A DNA stretch of 64,000 nt from Escherichia phage vB_Eco_J-01. The first letter of the stretch is position 1, and each line of letters begins with the position of its first letter. Positions 25,733 to 27,726 of the stretch are shown piece after piece. Position numbers and translations under genes: made by a program. Below the pieces are notes generated by a model, which was given only the letters and a program-made list of their open reading frames with translations, was not told where the DNA came from and ran no database searches. The DNA lies in the sequence record PQ438393.1, one strand, 5' to 3'.

Positions 25733-26767
25733 GTGGCGTTCCAAGCGTCTTCAGCTTTAGAACAAAGAAAAATCCACGCTGTACACAAGGCTTCCGGTAA
25801 TGTAAAAGAGTTTGAAACAAGAACAGATTTTTGGGGTAAATCTTCAAAAAATATTGGAGGATGGTTAGGAGCACTTAACGCGCAACGCGAAGCTGCTGGT
25901 AAGAAGTTGTTCTCTAGAGAAGATTTTGAAATAAAAGATGTTCAAATAGTCCCAGATAATATTTCTTTTACGTTTCAAGCTGCAAAGACAAAAATAACCC
26001 AGATGATGGATCACCTAAAACTTCAAAAGTATTGCGGTGTCATCGGGGTAGGAAAAACCTTCCGGCATTCTTTCAAAATGCCAAAAGAATATAAATCAGA
26101 ACGATCAGATTTAAGACCAATCCATTTATCAGATACTAAAGATTATCTAGTTGAAAAACATAACGGTGACGTTGTTACTGGTATTGAGGCAGATGATGCT
26201 TTAGAAATCTATGGATATGCAGGGTATAAAGCCTACAAGGAAACTGGTAAGTTTTCTCATATTGTAGCATCTATCGACAAAGATAGCTTACATACACCAA
26301 GTTTACTCTTTAACTTTTATAAAGAGGATGGTGTTTATAAAAATCCTTGTATTATTCTGATTGATGAATCTATCGGTGATATCTGGATCGTAGAAAAAGG
26401 TAAGAAAAAAGAAATTAAGGGTTGGGGTAGTTACTGGTTAGCTTATCAAATGCTAATGGGCGATAAGACAGATAGTATTCGACCTTACCAAGATTTCGAT
26501 GTTAAGTTTGGAGATATTACTTGCTTTAATCTTATTTCCAAATGTAAAACACAGGCTGAACTTTTTCAGACAGTTAAAGATCAGTATTATGAATGGTTCC
26601 CAGATGGCGTTAAATTTACTTCTTGGGATGGTGAAGAAGTAGAAATGACAACTGATGAATGGATAGAGACAATTTTTCAGTTGGTATATATGAAACGTTG
26701 GGCGAATGATGAAACAACTTTTGAAAGTATGCTACAAGCATATATTTCAGAGCAGGAGGAACATTGA
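25733..26767 (+). CDS. putative 5'-3' exonuclease (T7 gene 6-like)
   Basis: 344 aa; segments recalling T7 gp6 (SIDKD..., ...GWG...GDKTDSI); GTG start, weak RBS. Confidence 0.35.
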   Translation: MAFQASSALEQRKIHAVHKASGNVKEFETRTDFWGKSSKNIGGWLGALNAQREAAGKKLFSREDFEIKDVQIVPDNISFTFQAAKTKITQMMDHLKLQKYCGVIGVGKTFRHSFKMPKEYKSERSDLRPIHLSDTKDYLVEKHNGDVVTGIEADDALEIYGYAGYKAYKETGKFSHIVASIDKDSLHTPSLLFNFYKEDGVYKNPCIILIDESIGDIWIVEKGKKKEIKGWGSYWLAYQMLMGDKTDSIRPYQDFDVKFGDITCFNLISKCKTQAELFQTVKDQYYEWFPDGVKFTSWDGEEVEMTTDEWIETIFQLVYMKRWANDETTFESMLQAYISEQEEH

Positions 26768-27726
26768 GTAAATTAACAGACGAACAGAAAGCCTTGATTG
26801 TATCTATGAAAGCACAAGGTTATTCTTCGCGTAAGATTGCACAAGAGGTGTTGGGAAGTTCTACTAAGAAGAGCACAGTAAATGATTACTTAGCTCGTGT
26901 AAATTCACCACATCGCGGTGCTCCGCAAGATAAAGGTGGGCCAGTAATTAAAATTATTGACGTAGAGACAGCACCGGAGATTGTGTATAGCTTCTCACGT
27001 TTCAAAGCCTTTATTGCACCTGAACAAGTTATTCGTCGAGGTTACTTGCTTTCCTATTCATCTGCTGATTTAGAAACAGGGGAAGTAGAAGGTAAGAACC
27101 TTAGCAATTACCCTTTGTTTGACATAGATCATACAGATGATTGGGAATTATGTCAAGATCTCTGGCACTTACTTGACGATGCAGATATTGTGATCGCGCA
27201 CAATGGTATTAAGTTTGATAAGGCTTATATTAACCAACGTTTTGCTTTTCACGGTATGGAGCCACCATCACATTATGTTGTAATTGATACACTCAAGGCA
27301 GCTAAGAAGCAGTTTGCACTACCTTCTAATGCGCTTAAAGAAATGTGTTTGTATTTTGATACAGAAAACTTTAAACTTGATAATGAAGGTTTTCCTTTGT
27401 GGAAAGCATGTTGTGAAGGAGACAGACATGCCTTCTTCCGTATGCAAACATACAATGATGGTGATGTTGTTTCTCTTAGAGATCTTTACATCAAACTTCG
27501 TGCGTGGATTCCACAACATCCTAACGTATCTGCATTCTATGACGATGAAAAACTTCGTTGTCCTCGTTGCGGTAAAGAGCACCTTGAAGTTGTTCCTGGT
27601 AAGGTTTACACAACAGCGGTTAGTACATTCCAAGTGCTAAGATGCACATCATGTAATAGCCTGTCTCGTGGACGTGTTAATTTGCGTAGCAAAGAGAAGC
27701 GTGTAAACACTGTTATTGGAATTTAA
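26764..27726 (+). CDS. DEDD-type 3'-5' exonuclease with N-terminal HTH and C-terminal zinc ribbon
   Basis: exo motifs IDVETAP, IAHNGIKFDKAY, YNDGD; N-terminal HTH-like segment; CPRCG...CTSCN. Confidence 0.45.
   Translation: MSKLTDEQKALIVSMKAQGYSSRKIAQEVLGSSTKKSTVNDYLARVNSPHRGAPQDKGGPVIKIIDVETAPEIVYSFSRFKAFIAPEQVIRRGYLLSYSSADLETGEVEGKNLSNYPLFDIDHTDDWELCQDLWHLLDDADIVIAHNGIKFDKAYINQRFAFHGMEPPSHYVVIDTLKAAKKQFALPSNALKEMCLYFDTENFKLDNEGFPLWKACCEGDRHAFFRMQTYNDGDVVSLRDLYIKLRAWIPQHPNVSAFYDDEKLRCPRCGKEHLEVVPGKVYTTAVSTFQVLRCTSCNSLSRGRVNLRSKEKRVNTVIGI

Follow-up and report, generated by a model that had tools for sequence, protein, structure and literature searches.

What do the two reading frames that follow each other at positions 25733-27726 of a 64,000-nucleotide stretch of Escherichia phage vB_Eco_J-01 (PQ438393.1; the whole stretch is called the window here) encode, where does the first of them begin, and what would such a pair do for the phage? 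An earlier note, made from the sequence alone, had described them as tandem nucleases. Both open reading frames, ORF1 and ORF2, were located there on the + strand with strong PHROG matches, and the profile searches and structure predictions that the note had proposed gave a predicted nuclease fold for both proteins. Judged by sequence profiles and structural models, ORF1 is a 5'-3' exonuclease of the flap endonuclease (FEN) superfamily, of the T7 gp6 type, and ORF2 is a DEDDy 3'-5' exonuclease of the polymerase proofreading type. We assign a probability of about 0.65 to the reading that the two form a nuclease unit, in which the FEN 5'-3' exonuclease and the free-standing DEDDy 3'-5' exonuclease would serve end processing and the recycling of host DNA.

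The window is from a phAPEC8/phi92-like Escherichia coli myovirus of the Stephanstirmvirinae. A 3.5-kb query around the nuclease pair found 56 related records; Escherichia phage JLBYU50 has 99.8% DNA identity to the window, and 55 deposited genomes reach 95% or above. Most of these relatives infect E. coli and have genomes of about 146 kb (muut, arall, Nernie and EmilieFrey, for example). Their records name ORF1 "exonuclease" or "putative 5'-exodeoxyribonuclease" and ORF2 "DNA polymerase exonuclease subunit" or "putative DNA polymerase". ORF1 and ORF2 are ordinary phage DNA-nuclease genes for which public annotation already exists; new here are the correction of the non-canonical start of ORF1 and the doubt cast on the 'polymerase subunit' label of ORF2.

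ORF1, a T7 gp6-type exonuclease

The gene is listed in the form first called and in the form revised here; residue numbers refer to the 372-residue form with the ATT start.

25733..26767, + strand: ORF1 as first called, GTG start, 344 residues, the same in many GenBank records; lacks the beta-1 strand bearing the invariant D25
25649..26767, + strand: ORF1 as revised, ATT start, 372 residues, T7 gp6-type 5'-3' exonuclease of the FEN superfamily
25639..25645, + strand: Shine-Dalgarno sequence AGGAGGT of ORF1, 3 nt before ATT 25649

The resemblance to T7 gene 6, which had been proposed with little confidence, proved to be correct. ORF1 matches phrog_107, 'exonuclease', with E=3e-54, as expected of a real gene and not of a chance reading frame, and the same family contains T7 gp6 and phiKMV ORF22 (5e-79 each). 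Alignment of the ORF1 family with T7 gp6 by hhalign gave E=4e-5 and 69% probability, and a profile of 36 family sequences matched PDB entry 9l56, a '5'-3' exonuclease family protein', at 2.4e-5. Searches with the single sequence returned nothing useful from Pfam or NCBIfam and, with phmmer, no match in the PDB. The Pfam family 5_3_exonuc_N (PF02739) did not match ORF1 even at E<=10, and a precomputed match to it exists for 4 of 67 homologs; the membership of ORF1 in the FEN superfamily therefore rests on PHROG, profile and structure evidence.

In the hhalign alignment ILAIDYDQVAFQ of the ORF1 family is paired with ILVMDGDWLVFQ of T7 gp6, a segment that covers IDYD/MDGD, followed by the pairs EYKSER/NYKANR, GIEADD/MLEGDD, SIDKD/SCDKD and MGDKTDSI/KGDITDGY. 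Invariant among 32 sequences are D25, R139, Y148, K149, E180, D182, D210, K211, D212, D272 and D275, whereas D27 and R152 are nearly so. Homologs share an N-terminal strand '...IDYDQIAFQ', the first Asp of which is D25 and the second D27. The acidic clusters typical of FEN nucleases (beta-1 Asp, E-x-D, D-K-D and GDxxD) are complete in ORF1 only with the extended ATT start. The basic/aromatic YKxxR motif is also present, Y148, K149 and R152 being aligned to NYKANR of T7 gp6.

The AlphaFold2 (AF2) model of ORF1 has a predicted local distance difference test score (pLDDT) of 95.2 and a predicted template modelling score (pTM) of 0.88, and displays a PIN-like alpha/beta nuclease fold with a helix-3-turn-helix (H3TH) region. 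Foldseek matched it to E. coli ExoIX (3zdc, 4e-6) and to the T5 D15 flap endonuclease (5hmm and 1exn, 3.5e-4 to 7e-4); the only other significant match in the PDB is the FEN-bearing Pol1 of Mycobacterium smegmatis.

ORF1 thus shares with T7 gp6 the PHROG family and the hDxD, YKxxR, E-x-D-D, DKD and GDxxD motifs, and as in T7-like phages the exonuclease is encoded apart from a T7-like DNA polymerase (PolA). It differs in being remote in sequence, in its length (372 versus 300 residues) and in its ATT start. A conserved stretch of about 60 residues (approximately 39-100) after beta-1/alpha-1 of ORF1 has mostly gaps opposite it in T7 gp6, and ORF1 extends further at its C-terminal end.

The start codon of ORF1

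The frame and the stop codon given by the earlier note stand, but not the start at GTG 25733, since comparative sequence indicates that ORF1 most likely initiates at ATT 25649, 84 bases or 28 codons further upstream. Within this frame GTG 25733 is the earliest of the canonical start codons. The open stretch reaches back to 25637, with a TGA just ahead at 25634-25636, and the part before the GTG, which encodes IGGNISGYILIQPEDLHKYVDENTILAIDYDQ, is free of ATG, GTG and TTG. A canonical start codon is likewise absent from this stretch in the phages ESCO13, phAPEC8, KP2025 and Tr1; that of phiWec179 contains in-frame TTG and GTG codons, which are not conserved. Kept in all five diverged relatives is a Shine-Dalgarno sequence (AGGAGG, AGGGGG or GGAGGG) with an ATT or ATC 3-4 nt downstream of it.

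In the 26 gap-free upstream codons of the window and these five relatives, nucleotide differences are distributed 77/39/199 over codon positions 1/2/3, and in 14 of 15 pairwise comparisons at least as many codon changes are synonymous as nonsynonymous. Divergence biased to the third position together with the synonymous excess argues that the 28 upstream codons are translated, and this coding-type conservation makes ATT 25649 the most likely start. In the record of ESCO13 the start is annotated on the homologous ATT, with a ribosome-binding site. In rV5 the homologous codon is a TTG, the start of gp090, placed behind AGGAGGG (LSREYPLI versus ISGYILI), and every homolog with a canonical start retains the hDxD strand.

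That ORF1 truly begins at GTG 25733, or is an inactive remnant truncated at its 5' end, with the upstream stretch being untranslated regulatory sequence, is considered highly improbable. It would agree with the position of the GTG as first canonical start and with most GenBank records, which start the gene there or at even later ATG codons and give products of 229-344 residues. The upstream codons, however, show the third-position bias and a conserved peptide in the five relatives, and they encode the invariant D25, which is aligned to the first Asp of the T7 gp6 MDGD motif. In addition, the GTG itself reads ATT, ATC or GTT in relatives, a strong Shine-Dalgarno sequence precedes ATT 25649 and none precedes the GTG, and rV5 as well as the homologs with canonical starts begin at the ATT position with the hDxD strand retained. 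Two related candidates were rejected. A truncated pseudogene is contradicted by the coding-type conservation and the invariant D25. A -1 frameshift or fusion joining a small upstream ORF to ORF1 is contradicted by the TGA at 25634-25636 directly upstream in the ORF1 frame, by the signal-peptide character of the upstream product, by the conserved Shine-Dalgarno sequence with ATT/ATC, and by the TTG of rV5 at the homologous codon.

Like infC and pcnB of E. coli, ORF1 would be read from AUU (AUC in some relatives) behind a Shine-Dalgarno sequence and near the stop codon of the upstream cistron; unlike in those genes, the start at ATT 25649 is deduced solely from the comparison of sequences. Reporter data show that an AUU start gives expression several-fold lower than AUG, yet is functional in a stop-proximal, reinitiation-prone context (PMC3592434).

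Annotated lengths of the ORF1 product in GenBank records are 372, 363, 344, 253 or 229 residues. The records of phAPEC8, KP2025 and Tr1 reduce the FEN gene to a fragment of 229-253 residues, and two of them add a spurious small ORF. Such short fragments arise because gene callers miss the ATT/ATC start, and the mis-start of the FEN gene is a systematic annotation error across the Stephanstirmvirinae.

ORF2, a DEDDy exonuclease with two flanking domains

26764..27726, + strand: ORF2, TTG start, 320 residues; predicted helix-turn-helix (HTH), DEDDy 3'-5' exonuclease and zinc ribbon; phrog_403, Pfam RNase_H_2
26764..26904, + strand: ORF2 residues 1-47, three-helix HTH-like domain with the conserved signature SSRxIA...KSTVNDxL
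26944..27513, + strand: ORF2 residues 61-250, DEDDy core with Exo I D66/E68, Exo II N147/D152 and Exo III Y230/D234
27541..27693, + strand: ORF2 residues 260-310, zinc ribbon with C266-x2-C269 and C294-x2-C297

ORF2 matches phrog_403, 'DNA polymerase exonuclease subunit', with E=6e-108 over residues 5-319 (profile positions 3-319 of 321), again as expected of a real gene. It also matches phrog_17, 'DNA polymerase', and Pfam RNase_H_2 (PF13482) with 27.9 bits against a cutoff of 22. The three motifs on which the note had built its assignment are present, IDVETAP at residue 65, IAHNGIKFD at 144 and YNDGD at 230, as are the cysteine pairs CPRC at 266 and CTSC at 294. In an alignment of 36 family sequences the catalytic residues D66, E68, D152, Y230 and D234 and the four cysteines C266, C269, C294 and C297 do not vary at all, and N147 hardly varies.

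The AF2 model of ORF2 (pLDDT 91.5) shows helices at 6-17, 22-30 and 33-47, a low-confidence stretch at about 51-55 and an alpha/beta core at 61-250. Its N-terminal helices (6-47) have pLDDT values of 83-96, in line with the HTH-like segment that had been noted there. For this region Pfam matches stay below the cutoff (DUF7626 0.0013, HTH_38 0.036), and some homologs have precomputed matches to HTH_38 or HTH_7; a candidate HTH of the resolvase/IS30-like type is thus assigned from the predicted fold together with sub-threshold Pfam matches. The C-terminal CxxC...CxxC ribbon was found as described before, with three predicted strands (274-283, 288-294 and 300-306) and weak matches to zinc-ribbon families.

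By its motifs, structural matches and model the exonuclease of ORF2 is of the DEDDy class, the type found in polymerase proofreading domains. At about 1e-6, Foldseek matched the core to the 3'-5' exonuclease domains of archaeal PolB and of Pol epsilon, the exonuclease domain of T7 gp5 was aligned to the family by hhalign with 93% probability, and the best structural match in BFVD is the 'YprB' protein of the phiKMV-like phage LKA1 (3e-30). T7 gp5 (family A) and the proofreading domains of family B have the DEDDy residue set and the RNase H-like fold in common with ORF2. Unlike T7 gp5 and PolB, ORF2 is free-standing, with an HTH and a zinc ribbon where the polymerase domains would be.

The term 'DnaQ-type' used before is right for the DEDD superfamily but not for the class, since the Tyr (Y230) in Exo III makes ORF2 a DEDDy and not a DnaQ/epsilon-like DEDDh enzyme. 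E. coli DnaQ (Pol III epsilon) and ORF2 both belong to the superfamily and give weak profile matches over Exo II, whereas DnaQ is DEDDh and lacks both the HTH and the zinc ribbon. The best score of ORF2 against the DnaQ equivalog of NCBIfam was 28.1 bits, against a cutoff of 196.

The ORF2 family

The domain combination of ORF2 had been called unusual, which did not hold: the members of a very large family of phage proteins are normally built of HTH, DEDDy core and zinc ribbon. An exhaustive HMMER search delivered 7,634 clusters at 50% identity, 2,899 of them with E<=1e-30, and tblastn found the family in 1,585 phage records, including rV5, ICP1 (gp189), phiKMV (ORF24), phages of Acinetobacter, Aeromonas and Ralstonia, and many mycobacteriophages. 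Many of the top representatives have about 300-330 residues and match nearly the full profile; other members start at about profile position 50, the N-terminal domain being missing or replaced. Among the members of phrog_403/PF13482 are rV5 gp095, phiKMV ORF24 (2e-120 to phrog_403), the 'YprB-like' protein of LKA1, ICP1 gp189 and phi92 gp084. ORF2 is a typical member of phrog_403, and only the fact that it directly adjoins and overlaps the FEN gene is particular to the Stephanstirmvirinae. Literature searches on the family returned mentions at the level of annotation and no experimental work.

In two distant homologs (P0063 and P0067 in alignment A1) a zinc-ribbon-like segment, CPRCG...C-x-DC, replaces the N-terminal HTH. 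It seems, then, that the DNA-binding module at the N-terminus can be exchanged, whereas the ribbon at the C-terminus does not vary.

ORF2 and the phage polymerase

Is ORF2 a subunit of the phage polymerase, as its family label says? The polymerase was read from the close relative muut, where PolA is a T7 gp5-like family-A enzyme of 859 residues whose gene lies about 88 kb from the nuclease locus, outside the window. Its N-terminal sequences FDIES, HNIINFD and YYCIYD align to Exo I, II and III of T7 gp5, and with these motifs intact PolA has its own proofreading site. A BLASTP comparison between ORF2 and the N-terminus of PolA returned just the HN(G/I)IxFD motif, and hhalign of the ORF2 family against the same region was not significant (4% probability).

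A trans-acting proofreading subunit that binds PolA and edits misincorporations is the role implied by the label in PHROGs and in many records. The homology of the ORF2 core to the proofreading domains of T7 gp5 and PolB and the match to phrog_17 speak for it. We regard it as unlikely nevertheless. PolA retains all residues of Exo I, II and III, so that ORF2 would not be needed as its proofreader. The distance to the PolA gene also speaks against it, and so do the position of ORF2 among nuclease and nucleotide-salvage genes instead of replisome genes and the score far below the DnaQ equivalog cutoff. A distant member of the family is carried by mycobacteriophage Pacc40; the part of its genome that was examined, 20-58.5 kb, has no annotated polymerase. 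The label 'polymerase exonuclease subunit' is best taken as a statement of homology, and the main role of ORF2 in this phage is probably a different one.

Proposed gene unit and neighbourhood

25357..25386, + strand: candidate sigma-70-like promoter, TTGACT, 18 nt, TAATAT, with TG; directly after an rdgC-like gene and before the small ORF
25428..25640, + strand: small ORF, 70 residues, signal-peptide-like N-terminus MKKLLVGLLLVISSYSYAGQ; its TAG stop overlaps the ORF1 Shine-Dalgarno sequence
26754..26759, + strand: internal Shine-Dalgarno sequence AGGAGG of ORF2, within the 3' end of ORF1 and 4 nt before the TTG
27730..27759, + strand: intrinsic-terminator-like hairpin AAAGGGGC-GAAA-GCCCCTTT with a T run, starting 3 nt after the ORF2 stop; hairpin at 27730-27749

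ORF1 and ORF2 are on the same strand and overlap by 4 nt, the TTG of ORF2 lying over the TGA stop of ORF1 as TTGA. Such an overlap between stop and start codon is typical of genes whose translation is coupled. Five of six phages have TTGA or GTGA at the junction, preceded by GGAGG (window, ESCO13, phAPEC8, KP2025 and Tr1); ORF2 starts with GTG in phAPEC8 and ESCO13, and phiWec179 has an ATG at the junction. The small ORF is conserved in relatives; the record of muut has a hypothetical protein at the corresponding place. Together the features suggest a three-gene unit of small ORF, ORF1 and ORF2, with a promoter proposed by pattern match only.

A secreted or lipoprotein-like product within a nuclease gene unit is odd. 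The record of KP2025 labels the 70-residue small ORF 'gram-negative pili assembly chaperone', which looks doubtful for a protein of such length.

Upstream of the unit are genes for an ATP-dependent DNA ligase, a MazG-like pyrophosphohydrolase and an RdgC-like protein; downstream are those for an HNH/EndoVII-like nuclease, thymidine kinase, an NT5C-like nucleotidase, ThyX and NrdAB. Between the DEDDy and the HNH/EndoVII-like genes two conserved ORFs occur on the + strand, at 27765-28166 (133 residues, phrog_10946) and 28150-28344 (64 residues), for which no domain matches were obtained. FEN, EndoVII/HNH and DEDDy genes are also clustered in rV5, phiAbaA1 and phiKMV, but not directly adjacent.

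Proposed role

From gene context, the role in host-DNA degradation or recombination that the earlier note had considered for ORF2 is plausible. In the reading preferred here, ORF1 and ORF2 would process ends of opposite polarity in phage DNA replication and recombination, that is, in the removal of primers and flaps, in resection and in the trimming of 3' tails, with the neighbouring RdgC-like protein, ligase and HNH/EndoVII-like nuclease as possible partners. T7 gp6 degrades host DNA to mononucleotides. By analogy, the pair would probably also supply the adjacent salvage genes (thymidine kinase, NT5C-like nucleotidase, ThyX and NrdAB) with mononucleotides from host DNA. The HTH and the zinc ribbon may tether ORF2 to DNA, and the weak ATT and TTG starts with the overlapping TTGA junction may hold the dosage of the two nucleases low and linked.

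Several points weigh against this reading. The physiological role is deduced from homology and gene neighbourhood, and literature searches found no biochemical or genetic data on ORF1 or ORF2. Direct adjacency of FEN and DEDDy genes is confined to the Stephanstirmvirinae, four genes lying between them in rV5, two in phiAbaA1 and one in phiKMV, and in ICP1 no FEN is annotated within 4 kb of the ORF2 homolog. The promoter is a consensus match, and as the number of such sites in the region is not above the shuffled expectation it is just a candidate. ATT is a very weak initiator, and the Shine-Dalgarno spacing of 3-4 nt is short. Finally, in the hhalign alignment, a sequence alignment of moderate confidence, the Asp of 'FTDS' in T7 gp6 faces V or G in the ORF1 family, so that one acidic residue conserved in T7 gp6 may be missing from ORF1.

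One or both nucleases could instead work mainly at the interface with phage defence, by degrading retron multicopy single-stranded DNA (msDNA) or the complementary DNA (cDNA) of defence-associated reverse transcriptases (DRT), or by being sensed by such systems. Type I-A retrons may sense phage-encoded exonucleases, and retron Eco2 restricts Stephanstirmvirinae via a trigger not identified, these phages being without DenB or A1 homologs (PMC12916289). Both statements would fit such a role; the link to ORF1 and ORF2 is, however, purely circumstantial. No escape mutations or assays point to either gene, and the spread of both families over many phage groups fits a core role in DNA metabolism. 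We therefore hold the defence role to be improbable.

Two further readings are also given little credence, even when taken jointly. In the first, the AUU/AUC start of the FEN gene and the weak, overlapping TTG/GTG start of ORF2 could be a deliberate dosage control, sensitive to initiation factor 3 (IF3), of a potentially toxic pair. In the second, ORF2 may be no proofreader at all and could pair with the FEN as a polymerase-less unit, with a gene order like that of the two nuclease domains of Pol I. Such a two-nuclease unit might process specific DNA ends, or might be the Stephanstirmvirinae factor that is sensed by, or counters, retron-type defences.

Other observations in related records

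Four unannotated records named 'Campylobacter phage' (MG065639, MG065645, MG065656 and MG065689; host C. jejuni) are 99.2% identical over the 3.5-kb query. Their naming is probably a host or label error, or the result of contamination.

In muut (L001, 17580-18412) an annotated HNH endonuclease gene of 630 nt and a small ORF separate the DNA ligase from the MazG-like gene. The corresponding gap in the window, 23223-23421, is just about 200 nt, so that an HNH gene of the muut type is absent there. The difference looks like that expected of a homing endonuclease gene which some genomes have and others lack.

The UvrD-like helicase of muut (924 residues; L002, 39832-42606, outside the window) has sub-threshold Pfam matches to Intein_splicing and Hint at residues of about 254-600, which suggests an inserted intein.

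Implications for annotation

As both genes belong to large phage families already named in databases, and near-identical genomes are already annotated, the discovery value of the locus is little. Its use lies in the correction of records. Many GenBank entries of phAPEC8/phi92-like phages start the 5'-3' exonuclease at the wrong codon or shorten it, giving 229-344 instead of about 372 residues, because its start is the non-canonical ATT or ATC. The products called in this way are without the invariant first catalytic Asp and would be misleading for cloning of the enzyme. For the HTH-DEDDy-zinc-ribbon family the label 'DNA polymerase exonuclease subunit' reflects homology only, and for ORF2 in this phage it is doubtful because the polymerase has intact proofreading motifs of its own.

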